Below are positions 2,838 to 60,037 of a stretch of 64,000 nucleotides of DNA, piece after piece. The notes below the pieces were generated by a model that worked only from the letters and a program-made list of their open reading frames with translations, was not told the DNA's origin and made no database searches. The stretch's first letter is position 1. Every line of letters begins with the position of its first letter. This DNA is from Bdellovibrionales bacterium. GTDB lineage: Bacteria > Bdellovibrionota > Bdellovibrionia > Bdellovibrionales > UBA1609. The stretch lies in assembly GCA_022450595.1 (NCBI GenBank), contig JAKUPT010000003.1:18339-82338 (forward strand), read 5' to 3'. Made by a program: the position numbers and the translations under genes.

Positions 2838-3482
2838 TTACTTTAAATTATCGTAACGCTCATAAAGAGCTTCAGCAGTTTTGTGCTCTTTTTTCCATTT
2901 TTCAGCTTGCTCTTTATATGAAGAGGTCTTTTTGTCCCATTCTTGCTTTTCTTTTTGTATTTGAGTGATTTTTTGATCGATTGTTTTATAAAGCTCATCT
3001 AAGTTTTTCATTTGATTAGCCCATTCCTGCTTTTCTTTCTCAATCTCATTGAGCTTTTTATCATAAGCCGCAATGTTCATTTCACGCTTTTTCTTGTTAT
3101 TTTCTAGCTGAAATAAAACATCTTTGAGTTTTTTAATTTCAGCTAAATCACTATTAAGTTTTTCTTGCTCATTTTTTTTATACTCAACAATTTTTAGGCG
3201 CATTTTTTCAATGGCCTCTTTGTTCTTATCAACATTTTGACTACTTTTACCAAGGTCTTTTTTCTGTTGTTTTAAGTTATCTATAGCCTTAGATGTTTGC
3301 TCTTTGTTGTCTTTTGCTATATCCAGATTTTTTTTATATTCATTATAGTTATGTAAGCTGTTATCAACATTTGTTTTTAACTGCTCCATATCTACATCAA
3401 TTTTTACTTCTTTTGCATTTAACTGCAAACAAGCAAAAACAATCGTAAGTGTGTAAATTATTAATTTCATTTTATCCCCCAT
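2838..3482 (-). CDS. Secreted coiled-coil protein, last gene of the Glt-like operon
   Basis: Signal peptide, then a Lys/Glu/Gln-rich heptad-like sequence throughout. Its start overlaps the upstream stop by 1 nt. Confidence 0.75.
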   Translation of the reverse strand: MGDKMKLIIYTLTIVFACLQLNAKEVKIDVDMEQLKTNVDNSLHNYNEYKKNLDIAKDNKEQTSKAIDNLKQQKKDLGKSSQNVDKNKEAIEKMRLKIVEYKKNEQEKLNSDLAEIKKLKDVLFQLENNKKKREMNIAAYDKKLNEIEKEKQEWANQMKNLDELYKTIDQKITQIQKEKQEWDKKTSSYKEQAEKWKKEHKTAEALYERYDNLK

Positions 3483-15270: not shown

Positions 15271-15490
15271 TTGCTTCCCCTTTAAGTTTTCAAAACCTTT
15301 TAATAACGGTTTACAAAGGCATCTTCGGCTTTTTTTATGAACGACTTTAAATATTGAGAAATATTAAGCTATTTAGACATTTGTCGGGGGGATTTTAGTC
15401 TTTTTTGTATAACTCTTTTACATGGACTTTTTAAAGTTAAATTTTTTGACCAACTTATGAACAAGTTCTTTGTGCTTGTGTCCTGGCCTT

Positions 15491-15618
15491 GAATCTAGCT
15501 CAAAGATTTAAATATATATGTCTTTCTGGACACGGCCTCCATGCCTCGCAGCTCGCGGTCCGTCCTGGACCGCTGAGATCCAGAAAGACATATATATTTA
15601 AATCTTTGAACTAGATTC
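15491..15618. repeat. Long hairpin, copy 1: 40-bp AT-rich arms (39/40 complementary) around a 48-nt loop carrying the 47-nt GC-rich core (15531-15577, forward orientation)
   Basis: Left arm GAATCTAGCTCAAAGATTTAAATATATATGTCTTTCTGGA (15491-15530). The right arm (15579-15618) is its reverse complement with one mismatch. Core: CACGGCCTCCATGCCTCGCAGCTCGCGGTCCGTCCTGGACCGCTGAG. Confidence 0.95.
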
Positions 15619-15840
15619 ACTTGCTAACCAGATGGGTGTGATTTGTGAATGGATAGGAAAACTAAACATTAGAAACAATTAATTATTAGAAAATTAAGCT
15701 CTCACTTTTTAAAGTAAATGGGTTTTATATATTTTTTTTATCGATACCAATTTTTTAATTTCAATTTGCGATTGTTTGTACAAATAGACTTTTACAATCT
15801 GAAAATAATTTTCCCAGGACACCATCATCGCATTTTTAAG

Positions 15841-15976
15841 TTTTCTTTTTATTTCAGCTTTTTACAAAACAGTCTTATGAAAGACCTCAGCGGTCCAGGA
15901 CGGACCGCGAGCTGCGAGGCATGGAGGCCGTGTCTTGAATAAGACTGTTTTGTAAAAAGCTGAAATAAAAAGAAAA
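15841..15976. repeat. Long hairpin, copy 2: perfect 38-bp AT-rich arms around a 60-nt loop carrying the same core in reverse orientation (15886-15932)
   Basis: Left arm TTTTCTTTTTATTTCAGCTTTTTACAAAACAGTCTTAT (15841-15878). The right arm (15939-15976) is its exact reverse complement. The reverse complement of the core is 47/47 identical to copy 1. Confidence 0.95.
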
Positions 15977-15994
15977 CCTACCACGAACCCACAA

Positions 15995-16025
15995 ATAAAA
16001 AAGGCCCCAGTAAAAACTGAGGCCT
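15995..16025 (-). terminator. Rho-independent terminator of the phn-like operon
   Basis: Minus strand reads AGGCCTCAG-TTTTTA-CTGGGGCCT followed by TTTTTAT, 27 nt downstream of the permease stop. Confidence 0.7.
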
Positions 16026-16051
16026 AATAATAAACTGAATTTTAGAAAGTA

Positions 16052-17089
16052 TTATTTAATCGCTTCACGGATGTAAGCAGAGGTCGTGTCCATCACCCAT
16101 ACCACAAAGGCAATGACGAAAACGAGGCAGCCCACTTCTTCCCACATGGCTTGACCTTGGTATTGCATGATCATGGTACCAATACCACCACCGCCGACAA
16201 GACCAATGATGGTCGCCATACGCACGTTGATATCCCATCTATAAATGGTAAAGGCCGTGTATGGTAAAATGATTTGAGGAACCACAGCAAACCAAACAAC
16301 TTGAAGGCTTGAAGCTCCCGTGGCCACAATGGCTTCAATAGGGCCTTCTTCAACACACTCAACAAGCTCAGAGTAGTTCTTAGCAAGTGATGCTACAGAA
16401 TGAAGTAGCAATGCCAGCATACCAGCAAATGGACCAATACCTACCCAAACGGAGAACACAATAGCCCAAATTAGTGGTTCAATAGAGCGAGTCACGTTTA
16501 AGATAGTTCTAAGGGTGGCGTAGATACCAAAACTTACAGGATTGCTTCCCATAATGTTTTTGGCGCATAGAAAACTTAAAACAAAAGCAACCGGTACGGC
16601 AAACACTGTGGCCATAAAAGCTATAAAGATGGTTTCAATTACAGCCAAGATAGCTTTTGGTAAAATGGTCCAATTCGGATCAAATAAGGCTCCAAAAACT
16701 TTCATGGCACCAACAAGGCCATCCTGATCGGTCAATTCATAGATACTGATATGAGCTACATTTAGTCCTGTAATAAAAGCCACAATAAAGGCAACAATAA
16801 GTTCAATGCCCCAAAAGCTCATAGTCCAATGTTTGTCAGGTTGAGCTGTGAGTGCTTGAGGTGGGTCAAAAAGAATATTTCCTAAAGTTTTAATTTTAGC
16901 TTTTTGTAAAATAAAAACTAAAACACCACCAAGTGCCCATAGGCCGAAAAATATCATTACATTATTACCCATCTTAAGCATGGTCTCTTCAGTGGGTTGA
17001 ATAGATACAACCAAAGCCACCAATGCAAGAAAAGTAAAAATAAAGCCATCAAGTAATATACATCTGATTAAAGTCTTTGCCTGTTTCAT
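16052..17089 (-). CDS. phnE: Phosphonate/phosphite-type ABC transporter permease (PhnE-like)
   Basis: Multi-TM protein of 345 aa with a BPD-transporter-like core. It overlaps the upstream PhnC-like gene by 1 nt. Confidence 0.8.
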   Translation of the reverse strand: MKQAKTLIRCILLDGFIFTFLALVALVVSIQPTEETMLKMGNNVMIFFGLWALGGVLVFILQKAKIKTLGNILFDPPQALTAQPDKHWTMSFWGIELIVAFIVAFITGLNVAHISIYELTDQDGLVGAMKVFGALFDPNWTILPKAILAVIETIFIAFMATVFAVPVAFVLSFLCAKNIMGSNPVSFGIYATLRTILNVTRSIEPLIWAIVFSVWVGIGPFAGMLALLLHSVASLAKNYSELVECVEEGPIEAIVATGASSLQVVWFAVVPQIILPYTAFTIYRWDINVRMATIIGLVGGGGIGTMIMQYQGQAMWEEVGCLVFVIAFVVWVMDTTSAYIREAIK

Positions 17090-49097: not shown

Positions 49098-50168
49098 ATG
49101 AAACCAATATTGATTATTTTTAGTATTATCACTTTTCATCTTCCACTTAAAGCCCAAGAGGTGCGTGAGTTCTACAATGGCGTCAGGTCACTCGGAATGG
49201 GAGGGGCCACCATTGCAGTCACCAACGATGAAACTGCACTGTTAAATAACCCTGCCGGCCTTGGTAAGTTACGTGATTACTTTTTCACAGTGGCAGACCC
49301 TGAGCTTGATTTGAGTGAACGCAACTACCCAATACACGGCTTAGATCTCATGGGAATGATTGATCCCGATGCCACATTGGGAGAGTTAAGATCTCGCCCC
49401 GGCGCCTCTGTTTACTCTAAAGCACAAATATTTCCCTCTATTGTTCTTCCAAATTTTGGAATGGGATTGTTTACAAAGTATGAAATGTTCGCCCAAGTGG
49501 CCAGCGACAGTAGCACGTACAAAGTTAACTACCAAAATGACATGGCTTTTGTTTTTGGTTTTAACTTTAGACTTTTTGATGGACGTTTAAAATTAGGGTT
49601 TAATACCAAGCTTATCAACCGTGTGGAAATCCTTAGAGATGACTTAGACCCAACAGCTTCTACCAATACAGTATCAAACCTTGGTAAACACGGCTTTGGT
49701 GTAGGCTCAGATGTTGGAATGATTCTTACGGCGCCATGGAAGTATTTACCCACTCTTGCCATTCGTGCCCGTGATGTTGGAAATACAAAATTTGATTTTA
49801 AAGACGGACTCTTTAAAACCACTGCTGAGTACCCGGAAGTGGACACTCAAAAAGTAGATGCCGCTTTTGCTTTGTTTCCAATTCTTGGAAGAGGCAAGCG
49901 CATGGTTTTTACTTTAGAAGTACGTGATGTTTTAAATATGAGCGATTATGAAGATCAAAATAAACTTTACCACGGTGGAGTAGAATTTAACTTTCATGAC
50001 GCCTTCTTTTTTAGAGCCGGTTACAACCAACGCTACTGGACCTCTGGTGTAGAGCTAGCTGTAATGAACTATCAACTCCAACTGGCCACCTACGGCGAAG
50101 AGATCGGCACCGCCACCCAACCCCAAGAAGATCGCCGCTACGTCTTAAAATTCGCCTACCGCTTCTAA
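49098..50168 (+). CDS. FadL/TodX/PorV-like outer-membrane barrel, paralog 2
   Basis: RSLGMGGATIAVTNDETALLNNPAGL near the N-terminus and C-terminal EDRRYVLKFAYRF. Confidence 0.78.
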   Translation: MKPILIIFSIITFHLPLKAQEVREFYNGVRSLGMGGATIAVTNDETALLNNPAGLGKLRDYFFTVADPELDLSERNYPIHGLDLMGMIDPDATLGELRSRPGASVYSKAQIFPSIVLPNFGMGLFTKYEMFAQVASDSSTYKVNYQNDMAFVFGFNFRLFDGRLKLGFNTKLINRVEILRDDLDPTASTNTVSNLGKHGFGVGSDVGMILTAPWKYLPTLAIRARDVGNTKFDFKDGLFKTTAEYPEVDTQKVDAAFALFPILGRGKRMVFTLEVRDVLNMSDYEDQNKLYHGGVEFNFHDAFFFRAGYNQRYWTSGVELAVMNYQLQLATYGEEIGTATQPQEDRRYVLKFAYRF

Positions 50169-50175
50169 CCCGCGT

Positions 50176-50230
50176 CAAAAGGTACGGACTACCTTTTGGA
50201 ACCTCGCGCGAAAAGGTAGTCCGTACCTTT
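50176..50230. repeat. Perfect 21-bp inverted repeat (hairpin) with a 13-nt GC-rich loop
   Basis: AAAAGGTACGGACTACCTTTT (50176-50196), loop GGAACCTCGCGCG, then AAAAGGTAGTCCGTACCTTTT (50210-50230). CCTTTTGGAAC occurs twice as a direct repeat. Confidence 0.9.
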
Positions 50231-50242
50231 TGGAACACAGTA

Positions 50243-50273
50243 TAAAAAAAAGCCATGTTTCCATGGCTTTTTT
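50243..50273. terminator. Bidirectional Rho-independent terminator between convergent genes
   Basis: AAAAAAAA-GCCATG-TTTC-CATGGC-TTTTTTT. Confidence 0.8.
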
Positions 50274-57299: not shown

Positions 57300-59078
57300 A
57301 TGGAAAACACAATTTGTTCTAATTTTTTAAATAGAAGAAACCAACACTCAACAGCCTATGCCTTTAAAGCACAAAAAAAATGGCAAAAAGTGAGTTGGAG
57401 TGATTTATTCAAAAGTACAGAACTTATTGCCTGTGGATTAAAAAAATTAGGACTCAAAGAACAGGATAAGGTTATTATTTTGTCCGACACCCGGCCAGAA
57501 TGGTTAATTACAGACATGGCCATTATGGGATTAAAGGCGGTTACAGTCCCCGTTTATCAGAGCAGTCGGCATGAAGATCTGGAGTACATTGCCAACCATT
57601 CAGAGGCTTGTTTTCTCTTTTGTGAAAATAAAAAACAATACAAAAAATGGCAAAAGGTTTCTAAAAACTGCCCTACCGTAAAACAAGTTGTAGTGTTTGA
57701 CTCTAGAAACATAGAAGCTGCAGACAATGTGGTCTGCTACCATGAGCTTCAAAACATCGGACAAGACTACTTTCAAGATCATCCCAATGAATTTCATCAA
57801 AGCTGTAACCAAGTAAAACTAAAAGACCCAGCCAGCATCATCTACACTTCTGGCACAACCGGTCTCCCTAAAGGAGTGCTTCTCACTCATGAACAGTTTA
57901 TGAACGAAATGCAAACCACCTTTGGAGAGTTTGAGGTTGGGAGCCAGGACCGCTCTTTGATCTTTCTCCCCATGGCTCATGTGTTAGGACGAGTGGAAGC
58001 TCTAGGGGCTATATATACTGGGTTTAGTTTGTACTTTGCCACGAGCATTGAGAGAATTCCTGAGAATTTATTGGAAGTTAAACCCACAGTTATGGTGGCC
58101 GTACCTAGAATTTTTGAAAAAATTTATCAAAAAATGCAGTCAAAGCTTGCAAGCAATTCAGCATTAAAGCTGATGTTTAAACAGGCTAAATCCACAGCCT
58201 ACAGTTGGTCAAAAGCCAAAATGAATAATAAGCCTGTAGATGCAAAAACAAAAATCATGTACAAAGTTTTTTACCAAATGATATTTAAAAAAGTGAACAA
58301 AGCTTTTGGTGGTAATATTCGTTTTGTGATTTCAGGTGGAGCTCCCTTTTCTGAGGAGCTCGGTTATTTCTTTTTGGCCTGTAAAATTTTAGTTCTTGAA
58401 GGCTATGGGCTCACGGAAACCACAGCGGGAGTCTGTGTGAATCGACCAGAGGACTTTCGCTTTGGCTCTGTGGGAAAACCCATCACCAATGCTATATTTA
58501 AAATTGCCGATGATGGTGAAATATTAATTAAATCTAAAAATGTGATGAAAGAGTATTATAAAAACCCTGAAGAGACTCAAAAAGCCTTTCAGGGAGATTT
58601 TTTTTGCACCGGAGACATCGGGCACCTAGATGACCAAGGCTACCTAGTGATTACTGACAGAAAAAAAGACTTAATAAAAACATCTGGTGGTAAATATGTG
58701 GCCCCCCAAAAACTTGAAAATCTATTAAAACTGAGTCCTTATATTTCACAAGTGCATGTTTACGGAGACAAGCAAAAGTATATTGTTTGCCTTGTCACAC
58801 TTAATGAAGACAACGTGCTTCAGTTTGCAAAAAGCATTGGACTCAACACTCATGAGCTTGAAGAGCTTAAACAACACAGTGAAATAAAAAAACTCATTAA
58901 CTCTGAAATCAAAGCAGTAAATAAGAAACTTGCCAGCTATGAGACAATTAAAAGACACTCTATTTTAGCAAAAGACTTCACAGTGGAGTCCGGTGAACTT
59001 ACACCTAGTTTAAAAATTAAAAGAAAAGTCATTAACGAAAAGTACAAAGAGGAGCTTCATAAGCTCTATGCCAGTTAA
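57300..59078 (+). CDS. Long-chain acyl-CoA synthetase (AMP-forming)
   Basis: AMP-binding motif IYTSGTTGLPKGV, then YGLTET, GDIG and KDLIKTSGGKY. Confidence 0.9.
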   Translation: MENTICSNFLNRRNQHSTAYAFKAQKKWQKVSWSDLFKSTELIACGLKKLGLKEQDKVIILSDTRPEWLITDMAIMGLKAVTVPVYQSSRHEDLEYIANHSEACFLFCENKKQYKKWQKVSKNCPTVKQVVVFDSRNIEAADNVVCYHELQNIGQDYFQDHPNEFHQSCNQVKLKDPASIIYTSGTTGLPKGVLLTHEQFMNEMQTTFGEFEVGSQDRSLIFLPMAHVLGRVEALGAIYTGFSLYFATSIERIPENLLEVKPTVMVAVPRIFEKIYQKMQSKLASNSALKLMFKQAKSTAYSWSKAKMNNKPVDAKTKIMYKVFYQMIFKKVNKAFGGNIRFVISGGAPFSEELGYFFLACKILVLEGYGLTETTAGVCVNRPEDFRFGSVGKPITNAIFKIADDGEILIKSKNVMKEYYKNPEETQKAFQGDFFCTGDIGHLDDQGYLVITDRKKDLIKTSGGKYVAPQKLENLLKLSPYISQVHVYGDKQKYIVCLVTLNEDNVLQFAKSIGLNTHELEELKQHSEIKKLINSEIKAVNKKLASYETIKRHSILAKDFTVESGELTPSLKIKRKVINEKYKEELHKLYAS

Positions 59079-59842
59079 GGCCTGGACATATAAAATCTAA
59101 AAGCAATACCTAAAAATAAACTGCTCATATCTAAAGTTCTGTCTGTGCCATCATTAAACTTTGCACGAGCGCCCTTGGTGGTGCTGCCTTGAAAACTCGT
59201 CACCGCCGTATCATATTCTAAACTGTCAAATTCCATCACTCTATAACCCAAATTGTATAAAAAGGTTACGTTGTCAGTAAAATGCATCTCTTGGCCAAAA
59301 TGTATTGAGTAGGAAATGGTAGAACCGCCAGTTTCATCTATATAATTAGACACTGGTGAATAGGCCGTTGTTCCCGCCGAGGTGAGTTCATAGGTGTTAT
59401 CAACGTCCACTTCAGCTAAGCCAATCCCAAACCCTATAAAGCTTCTAGATTGTGGGCCTTGCATCAAATCCACCTCAACCACCATATTAGGATTGAACAC
59501 AAACACTTTGCTATCAAGCTTCATTAACTCAGCACCTGAAGAGTTCTTACCCGAGACATCTGTTAGAGAGTTTGTTTGTAAAATCTCGGCTCCAAATTTA
59601 AAGGTCACCGTTCGAATTTTTAATGAAGCTCCCAACTCAAAACTTTGATTGTAAGTCACGCCCTCAGAAAAACTAGTGGTTTGACTGCCACTGCTATTTT
59701 TAAAAGCGCCTTGATATAGATCTGAATAGCCAGCACTTCCGCCAAAAAATACCGACAGACTTTCATCGCCAAAATCGAAAACACGAGCATTGGCTGACAA
59801 AGCAGAACTTAAAACTAAAATTGCAGATAAAATTTTAAACAT
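59075..59842 (-). CDS. Outer-membrane beta-barrel protein
   Basis: Signal peptide ...SANA, strand pattern, and a C-terminal GIAFRFY. Confidence 0.72.
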   Translation of the reverse strand: MFKILSAILVLSSALSANARVFDFGDESLSVFFGGSAGYSDLYQGAFKNSSGSQTTSFSEGVTYNQSFELGASLKIRTVTFKFGAEILQTNSLTDVSGKNSSGAELMKLDSKVFVFNPNMVVEVDLMQGPQSRSFIGFGIGLAEVDVDNTYELTSAGTTAYSPVSNYIDETGGSTISYSIHFGQEMHFTDNVTFLYNLGYRVMEFDSLEYDTAVTSFQGSTTKGARAKFNDGTDRTLDMSSLFLGIAFRFYMSRP

Positions 59843-59926: not shown

Positions 59927-60037
59927 GCAATTTTAGAGTTTAGAGTGTCGATTCAGACACGGCCTCCTTGCCTCGCTGCTCTACGGTCCGTCCTGGACCG
60001 CAGAGGTCTTCATCGACACTCTAAACTCTAAAATTGC
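59927..60037. repeat. Long hairpin, copy 3: perfect 26-bp arms around a 59-nt loop carrying a diverged core (59958-60005, forward orientation)
   Basis: Left arm GCAATTTTAGAGTTTAGAGTGTCGAT (59927-59952). The right arm (60012-60037) is its exact reverse complement. The core CACGGCCTCCTTGCCTCGCTGCTCTACGGTCCGTCCTGGACCGCAGAG matches copy 1 in 43 of 48 aligned columns. Confidence 0.95.

Follow-up and report, generated by a model that had tools for sequence, protein, structure and literature searches.

Long hairpins with a conserved two-GGA-loop tip in a marine Bdellovibrionales-like lineage: a candidate TwoAYGGAY-like, CsrA-binding RNA

The DNA considered here comes from a Bdellovibrionales bacterium (assembly GCA_022450595.1, contig JAKUPT010000003.1, positions 18,339 to 82,338 of the forward strand) and contains three long hairpin elements, which are the subject of this report. 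The whole stretch that was analysed, 64,000 nucleotides (nt) with a GC content of about 36%, is referred to as the window, and positions given without a locus number are counted from its first letter. Its source population is marine, Bdellovibrionales-like and known from metagenome assemblies only. Two of the elements (copies 1 and 2) form a divergent doublet between a phosphonate-type ATP-binding cassette (ABC) transporter operon (phn) and a PilZ/GYF gene, which is followed by a MotA/ExbB-ExbD gliding-type operon, and the third (copy 3) is found upstream of the open reading frame (ORF) 59075-59842. Judged from the sequences, we give a probability of roughly 60% to the reading that these elements are a small multi-copy structured RNA with a conserved two-loop tip, which resembles the Rfam family TwoAYGGAY (RF01731) and is predicted to serve as a CsrA-binding decoy.

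Copy 1 (15490..15619, minus strand) is a putative hairpin RNA gene composed of a 41-bp AT-rich basal stem, with one G·U pair, and an apical module. Its arms (15490-15530 and 15579-15619) are 41 nt long with 1 mismatch, the predicted fold has a minimum free energy (MFE) of -81.5 kcal/mol (z -13.7), and the element is co-oriented with the PilZ gene, its 3' end lying 220 nt upstream of the PilZ start (15270). Copy 2 (15840..15977, plus strand), also a putative hairpin RNA gene, is directed at the 3' end of the phn operon and consists of a perfect 39-bp outer stem (arms 15840-15878 and 15939-15977), a tandem G·A, a 4-bp inner stem and the apical module; across the 4-nt symmetric mismatch, the arms can be followed for 49 nt at 94%. 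The tandem G·A is made by the UGAA at 15878..15881 (plus strand), which pairs with 5'-UGAA-3' at 15936-15939 and is flanked by U·A pairs within the basal stem. The spacer between the two copies (15620..15839, about 217 bp) is located 5' of both divergent RNAs, and the doublet measures 217 bp from stem to stem and 302 bp from core to core. Copy 3 (59927..60037, minus strand; likewise a putative hairpin RNA gene), which was discovered by a scan for k-mers and GC islands, has a core with 5 differences, again distinct arms with a perfect 26-bp outer stem, a tandem G·A (59952-59955/60009-60012) and the apical module; its 3' end is 85 nt upstream of the co-oriented ORF 59075-59842. By length, the three copies are the top three palindromes in the window, where the chance expectation for perfect inverted repeats of at least 26 bp is about 1e-8. 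A covariance model, R1, was built from alleles of the elements and scores copies 1, 2 and 3 at 100.7, 98.1 and 90.7 bits, respectively; a scan of the window with R1 returns only these three (91-101 bits), the next best match having 13 bits.

A preliminary description of this DNA had reported an identical, inverted 47-nt core in two long AT-rich hairpins, and this was borne out in full: the 47-mer is present at 15531-15577 (plus strand) and 15886-15932 (minus strand) with 0 mismatches, none is expected by chance (100 shuffles), its GC content is 72% (34/47 by direct count), the 7-bp GC hairpin within it is real and the arms of copies 1 and 2 are as long as stated or slightly longer. Its assignment of the flanking genes also stands, as does its statement that no recombinase, reverse transcriptase or transposase gene is nearby, since none was found within about 10 kb at any locus, nor any prophage context. 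It had further claimed that the arms of the two copies share no similarity. This is right for the outer 25 bp or so, which cannot be aligned between copies, but not for the inner 12-14 bp beside the core, which are homologous among the copies (GUCUUAUGAAAGAC / GUGUCGAUGAAGAC / GUCUUUCUGGAC), so that the shared part consists of this inner segment and the centre only.

All three elements follow one design, in which an AT-rich basal stem of 26-41 bp carries a conserved GC-rich tip of about 50 nt formed by two adjacent hairpins, each with GGA in its terminal loop. On the GGA strand the tip reads 5'-CUCAGCGGUCC-AGGAC-GGACCGCGAG-CUG-CGAGGC-AUGGAG-GCCGUG-3', with the first hairpin (H1) being CUC(A)GCGGUCC-AGGAC-GGACCGCGAG and the second (H2) CGAGGC-A(U/A/C)GGAG-GCCGUG. 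In copy 1 (apical module 15531..15578, minus strand), H2 occupies 15531-15548 with the RNA loop AUGGAG at 15537-15542, and H1 15552-15577 with the RNA loop AGGAC at 15562-15566. In copy 2 (15886..15932, plus strand), H1 (15886-15911, loop AGGAC at 15897-15901) is joined by the linker CUG (15912-15914) to H2 (15915-15932, loop AUGGAG at 15921-15926), and in copy 3 (59958..60005, minus strand), H2 (59958-59975) has the RNA loop AAGGAG and H1 (59979-60005) an 11-bp helix with the loop AGGAC. The AGGAC and A-N-GGAG loops are 26 nt apart and invariant save for the N of A-N-GGAG (U, A or C), GGA being constant in both. For the GGA strand of copies 1 and 3, RNAfold predicts the basal stem and the two hairpins with AGGAC and AUGGAG/AAGGAG unpaired in the loops; for copy 2, it predicts H1 with an exposed AGGAC loop, and the MFE structure pairs H2 differently, leaving the second GGA only partly exposed. 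The RNAalifold consensus independently recovered the same architecture. In the structure so defined, 95.7% of the alignment cells are paired, as compared to 31-45% in slid controls, and 8 pairs have double-sided changes, a count reached by 6 of 500 shuffles; the observed paired percentage or covariation score was reached by 0 of 500.

Orthologous loci, numbered with an L, were recovered from relatives via the flanking proteins. When the window is compared with the TARA strains, third codon positions are 70-74% identical (26-30% diverged), the intergenic spacer is 62-70% identical (30-38% diverged), and the apical modules are identical at 73/74, 50/51 and 53/53 positions (98-100%); the module of copy 3 is also 53/53 identical in the 92% strains L128-L134. 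The orthologous arms are 80-94% identical, and a stem difference between orthologous alleles nearly always has its mirror image on the partner arm, which holds for at least 16 substitutions and several indels. Such mirrored differences amount to 4-5 substitutions and a 2-nt indel in copy 1, to 2 substitutions and 3 indel columns in copy 3 and, over the 39 bp of copy 2, to either 2 substitutions or 8-9 substitutions with 2 indel columns. Over 9 distinct alleles, the arm pairs comprise 326 Watson-Crick pairs, 3 G·U pairs and 1 mismatch. The conserved two-GGA-hairpin module is under purifying selection, and the basal helix is constrained to pair only. Selection would act on each nucleotide of the tip and, in the stem, on pairing alone, and paralogous stems would consequently have drifted apart by compensated changes. 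The orthologous alleles amount to a natural experiment, in which the GGA loops and short stems are constrained in sequence and the basal helix in its pairing.

Selection is also confined to a single strand, as expected of an RNA. All 16 wobble cells in the alignment are G·U on the GGA strand and A·C on the opposite strand, on which the number of G·U pairs is 0; they derive from at least 6 independent one-sided changes and one fixed G·U. One-sided changes that are only ever G·U on the GGA strand point to selection on an RNA. The GGA strand folds 1.8-6.1 kcal/mol better than the core strand in RNAfold, and the TTCA/TTCA beside the core of copies 2 and 3 becomes a tandem G·A (5'-UGAA/3'-AAGU) on the GGA strand only. 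All alleles of copies 2 and 3 (for copy 2, those of the window, L116 and L120) have this tandem G·A (UGAA/UGAA) in the basal stem, and copy 1 is without it. The RNA is probably read from the strand opposite to the core of the preliminary description, the orientation of which would be antisense.

The divergent doublet and the singleton are inherited vertically. All close strains carry the same three sites filled, and an R1 scan of the TARA strains (about 40 kb of overlap) found the same sites occupied. Locus L127, from an 89% relative, contains at 3338-3408 the copy 2 outer arm, a fused, palindromic core whose only loop is AGGAU and the copy 1 outer arm; its left flank is orthologous to the copy 2 arm and its right flank to the copy 1 arm, and the flanks are not complementary to each other (z 6.1, 5.8 and 2.0, respectively). 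To judge from these flanks, the element of L127 is what remained of a doublet after a deletion between the direct repeats formed by halves of the two H1 hairpins, which means that the doublet is old, vertically inherited and predates the split from this relative. In L117/L120-type strains, the copy 1 core and the copy 2 core differ at 3-4 sites and the copy 1 arms are as in L116. The 47/47 identity of the cores in the window probably reflects gene conversion between inverted neighbours, in addition to site-by-site selection on the tip.

For copy 2, two outer-stem alleles can be distinguished when its arms (15840-15878/15939-15977) are set against those of L120 (2954-2992/3053-3091): allele A is present in the window and L116, and allele B in L117, L120 and L123, a distribution at odds with the phylogeny of the flanking genes. 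PilZ is 100% identical between L116 and L120, the copy 2 arms of which are about 60% identical, and the window and L116 share 89% identity in the permease gene and 94% in the copy 2 arms. L116 is a recombinant with its breakpoint just to the right of copy 2, and the conflict would imply a recombination breakpoint directly beside this element and an old or imported allele. A relation of the two alleles by direct descent or by a strand flip of the central 27-nt block was considered and rejected, as there is no significant similarity in either orientation (direct z 0.5, strand-flipped z 1.5). In a gapped alignment, the alleles are 74% identical, so ordinary divergence with compensation, together with recombination, is enough to account for them.

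A heptanucleotide array, (AACTACT)n, lies between the divergent RNAs and 5' of both in L116 (9529-9583, 7.9 copies) and also in L117, L120 and L123, being longer and interrupted by N-gaps in L117 and L123, and is absent from the spacer of the window (15620-15839). It recalls the upstream short-repeat arrays at TwoAYGGAY loci of Pseudomonas. At L118, L119, L121, L122, L124 and L125, the contig stops 73-216 nt short of the copy 1 core. Breaks at or next to the elements occur in many independent TARA and Logan assemblies, as one would expect of repeated palindromic sequence, and copy numbers derived from metagenome-assembled genomes are for this reason underestimates. In relatives at 57-74%, no copy was found at these loci, and what is gone is the whole surrounding segment and not an empty hairpin: copy 3 is missing together with its surroundings in the 68-74% relatives, distant relatives are short of about 330-370 bp rather than of the element alone, and the covariance model detects no copy in the 66% and 57% PilZ relatives. 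The 66% PilZ relative carries a different, imperfect hairpin of 187 nt upstream of PilZ, at two loci with different genes further upstream (L139 8172-8358 and L138 9497-9683). It has a GC-richer, perfect outer stem of 25 bp and 91-nt arms that are 77-80% complementary, contains no GGA loops and matches no Rfam family except generic microRNA (miRNA) models, and a long hairpin upstream of the PilZ operon may be a recurring feature. Within the window, a 22-bp perfect palindrome with a 13-nt spacer (50176-50232) follows the stop codon of ORF 49098-50168 and precedes a terminator-like hairpin (about 50244-50272). Each of its arms is a mini-hairpin, AAAAGGTA-CGGAC-TACCTTTT, one arm per strand presenting an ACGGAC (AYGGAY-type) loop, and it has only 13 bits with model R1.

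In the proposed model, the elements would be transcribed as small RNAs from the GGA strand, and one CsrA dimer would clamp the two GGA loops 26 nt apart. The RNA could then titrate CsrA or, in the case of copies 1 and 3, bring CsrA to the leader of the downstream gene, and the long perfect helix might confer nuclease resistance or act as a processing signal for ribonuclease III (RNase III). The tips contain at least two A(N)GGA motifs in hairpin loops at a bridgeable spacing, as the MFE structures show for copies 1 and 3 and, in copy 2, for the H1 loop only. We take the CAGGACG of H1 to be an instance of the CsrB repeat CAGGA(U/C/A)G and the C-ANGGAG-G of H2 to be of the A(N)GGA hexaloop type, and a loop spacing of 26 nt presumably suits one CsrA dimer; Mercante and colleagues, in 2009, are said to have described a range of bridgeable site spacings for a CsrA dimer. 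Within the Bdellovibrionota, CsrA occurs and is active (PMC13443453).

Several alternatives share the structure and differ in what it would be used for. The GGA hairpins could be operators for CsrA or another protein, acting in cis in the leaders of the PilZ-gliding operon and of ORF 59075-59842. Copies 1 and 3 lie 220 and 85 nt, respectively, upstream of a gene with the same orientation, which fits this idea, as do the Cis-reg type given to TwoAYGGAY by Rfam and the other long hairpin at the equivalent place upstream of PilZ in a 66% relative with two different upstream contexts. We nevertheless regard cis regulation as rather unlikely, given that copy 2 faces no gene start but the convergent 3' end of the phn operon, that the GGA sites are distant from ribosome-binding sites and that TwoAYGGAY was judged not to be cis-regulatory (Weinberg et al. 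2010, PMC2864571). An RNA might also be made from the core strand, which too folds as a long stem with two small hairpins. Its C/U-rich loops (GUCCU and CUCCAU, including CCUCC) would then pair with Shine-Dalgarno (SD) regions in the manner of an anti-SD-type small RNA; going by general knowledge, we assume the loop CCUCC(A/U)U to resemble the anti-SD sequence. On that strand, however, each one-sided change is an A·C mismatch and none a G·U, the conserved UGAA/UGAA turns into tandem U·C/C·U mismatches, the fold is less stable by the 1.8-6.1 kcal/mol given above and both Rfam matches are on the other strand, which makes a core-strand RNA quite improbable. Finally, an apical unit of about 75 nt (the two GGA hairpins with the 12-14 bp inner stem) could be the sole heritable or mobile part, with the outer stem made or remade locally, through a dedicated or replication-linked process, as a strain-specific double-stranded RNA that has a function of its own. 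RNase III could yield small RNAs from it, and the CsrA-type module would be the handle. This would explain why each paralogue has a different stem, why the two copy 2 alleles are barely alignable and why their distribution conflicts with the phylogeny; we give it a slim chance.

Other alternatives place selection or spread at the level of DNA. The elements could be palindromic DNA resembling foldback miniature inverted-repeat transposable elements (MITEs), with a conserved centre, spreading as DNA by way of a cruciform or a hairpin of single-stranded DNA and with merely incidental GGA loops. They are multi-copy and intergenic (3 copies in 64 kb), assemblies frequently break at them (L118-L125 begin right next to copy 1), the 68-74% relatives lack copy 3 with its surroundings, and a mobile-element-like expansion has been proposed for TwoAYGGAY (10.64898/2026.09.22.753630). 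We consider such an element unlikely: the outer arms, which would be its terminal inverted repeats, are not common to the copies, no direct repeat marks a target-site duplication at the outer ends, no clean empty sites were seen, and no transposase, recombinase or reverse transcriptase is encoded within about 10 kb at any locus. The three sites are filled in all close strains despite 26-30% silent divergence, with a doublet older than the 89% relative, and the strand-asymmetric G·U pairs and retained tandem G·A favour selection on a single-stranded transcript. Public collections gave no meaningful match either. The phage collection has no match to the whole copy 1 element, the plasmid collection only a chance-level match to copy 2 (E 0.4), and JGI metagenomes returned 0 matches with a strict pattern and with a relaxed one covering all known variants; two scans of viral contigs gave a single chance match in DNA of 68% GC and 0 matches, respectively, and a scan of reference genomes with the 18-mer CGGTCCGTCCTGGACCGC gave at least 113 chance matches in GC-rich genomes, with none among the matches listed having the rest of the core. 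The preliminary description had offered, as possibilities, a cassette inserted at the apex of long palindromes (here taken as about 47 nt in pre-existing palindromes), a process of inverted duplication of the flank, which would make the arms, and, as a third option, a structured RNA or single-stranded DNA family in which only the apical module is constrained in sequence. Arms unique to each copy and the seeming mirroring of part of the core about a small hairpin in L127 speak for the cassette or duplication, but the window holds no core-less long palindrome (the runner-up differs in design and has arms of 22 bp), the loci of relatives contained no orthologous empty palindrome, the more distant relatives being without the whole region, and L127 is accounted for by a simple deletion rather than a templated mirror. 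In addition, the tandem mismatch (TTCA/TTCA in DNA) persists across lineages and copying of one arm from the other would erase it. We therefore hold both versions to be very improbable and follow the third option, in line with the 98-100% conserved tip, the variable but paired stems and the wobbles on one strand.

A few further ideas were tried and dropped. TTCA...TTCA as a 4-bp target-site duplication with GAC/GTC inverted ends was rejected, as it lies inside the stem, is missing from copy 1 and, on the RNA strand, amounts to a tandem G·A. An invertible promoter segment between the inverted cores does not agree with the constant orientation of the spacer in all strains, and no invertase was found. 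Quasipalindrome template switching (arm-to-arm correction) is unneeded for the perfect arms and disfavoured by the persisting tandem mismatch and G·U pairs. A guide-like role of the arms was also rejected: outside their own elements, they match only as 10-14-mers in about 250 kb of lineage sequence, apart from one 18/19 match of a copy 1 arm at L136 5085-5103, which in this distant relative is part of an SMC/RecN-like gene (E 0.007, small database). This match is likely due to chance, because the sequence is AT-rich and only 14 nt of it are common to the closer strain L128.

How close the elements are to TwoAYGGAY, the gathering cut-off of which is 43 bits, was assessed with a sensitive Rfam scan. 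TwoAYGGAY is the top match for copy 2 (15842-15975, plus strand, that is, the GGA strand), with a score of 37.4 bits and hence below the cut-off, and the copy 2 allele of L120/L123 scores 46.7 bits, above it; H1 is aligned to the CAuGGAUG hairpin of the model. A match of the core to a described Rfam family, which the preliminary description had named as speaking against its cassette idea, is seen in this sister allele and falls short in the window. By definition, TwoAYGGAY has a common stem that bears two hairpins, each with an AYGGAY loop (Weinberg et al. 2010, PMC2864571). Two sequential hairpins on a common stem are found in the RNAfold structures of copies 1 and 3 and in the RNAalifold consensus (H2 of copy 2 differs), and the genomic habit of multiple copies and divergent doublets is seen in the 3 copies within 64 kb and the 217 bp between the stems. 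RF01731 is typed as Cis-reg and belongs to the Csr/Rsm clan, which also contains CsrB and CsrC.

A number of observations weigh against a TwoAYGGAY-like RNA that binds CsrA. The 46.7-bit alignment skips the second hairpin of the TwoAYGGAY model; copies 1 and 3, which have the same tip, gave no TwoAYGGAY match in the Rfam scan, and the tip with the inner stem alone gave none either and only 5 bits to CsrB. The borderline TwoAYGGAY score depends on the outer stem, and membership in the family is weak. An unrelated hairpin, the 187-nt one described above, reaches 47.5 bits (E 6e-9) with a plant miRNA model, which indicates that cmscan statistics are inflated for long hairpins. Neither loop matches the full AYGGAY, H1 having AGGAC and H2 AUGGAG, AAGGAG or ACGGAG, which end in G. 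Covariation in the tip is thin, the hairpins being near-invariant, and consists of one compensated pair, one half-step and two changes from G·C to G·U. A scan of 15280-16060 for consensus sigma-70-like promoters found nothing, no U-tract terminator follows the stems, and csrA was not found in the approximately 100 kb of lineage sequence available. A G·T-tolerant hairpin of single-stranded DNA, on the same strand as the predicted RNA, may also produce the wobble pattern.

If the elements are indeed CsrA-binding RNAs, the locus extends the TwoAYGGAY design to a marine lineage of predatory, Bdellovibrionales-like bacteria, for which, to our knowledge, no CsrA antagonist RNA is known. TwoAYGGAY-type RNAs are widespread, with copy numbers that can run into the hundreds in a genome, and the locus described here is a candidate for CsrA control beside genes for cyclic di-GMP signalling (PilZ) and a gliding-motor operon. 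The doublet is inherited vertically and can be collapsed by deletion, which, taken together with the constraints on the alleles, speaks for a family that is, at this locus at least, a resident regulatory RNA rather than an active mobile element.

Compared with other systems, REP and REPIN (repetitive extragenic palindromic) sequences and foldback MITEs are likewise short, multi-copy, intergenic, hairpin-forming and prone to break assemblies. They have conserved arms or ends and a variable middle, whereas the elements described here have a conserved loop and variable arms, and they depend on a RAYT or another transposase, whereas the sites here are stably inherited and no RAYT or Y1 transposase was found among the neighbouring genes. 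The ncRNA (non-coding RNA) arrays of UG27 reverse transcriptases (10.64898/2026.09.22.753630) are also composed of hairpin units that are conserved in structure and diverse in sequence; they are arranged in tandem and adjoin a reverse transcriptase in prophages, neither of which is present here. With CsrB/CsrC and RsmX/Y/Z, the elements share the display of GGA motifs in hairpin loops, but they have two sites per RNA and many gene copies, in contrast to CsrB and RsmZ they possess a long perfect basal helix, and they have no sequence homology to CsrB (5 bits), CsrA binding being predicted here.

[quoted passage not shown] The family is multi-copy with a variable copy number, its doublets are divergent in 68% of cases, the median distance being 249 bp, short tandem repeats are often found upstream, the basal stem is elongated in Bacillota, and what the family does and how it spreads are treated as open questions (bioRxiv preprint of September 2026, 10.64898/2026.09.22.753630). 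The elements described here differ from it in their loops (AGGAC and A-N-GGAG versus AYGGAY), in an H2 of 3-6 bp versus about 15 bp in the model, in an AT-rich basal stem that is unusually long (26-41 bp) and nearly perfectly paired, and in their marine Bdellovibrionales-like host, which is not reported in the TwoAYGGAY literature compared. They agree with it in having a poorly conserved common basal stem with two sequential GGA-loop hairpins and multiple intergenic copies with a divergent doublet about 220-300 bp apart and, in some strains, a short tandem array in between; the tandem G·A in the basal stem (here one, in copies 2 and 3) may be a further likeness, and their elongated, simple basal stem is closer to the Bacillota or original form than to the extended Pseudomonas form. 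In architecture, loop motif and genomic habit, the elements are a variant resembling TwoAYGGAY, though not a proven homologue.

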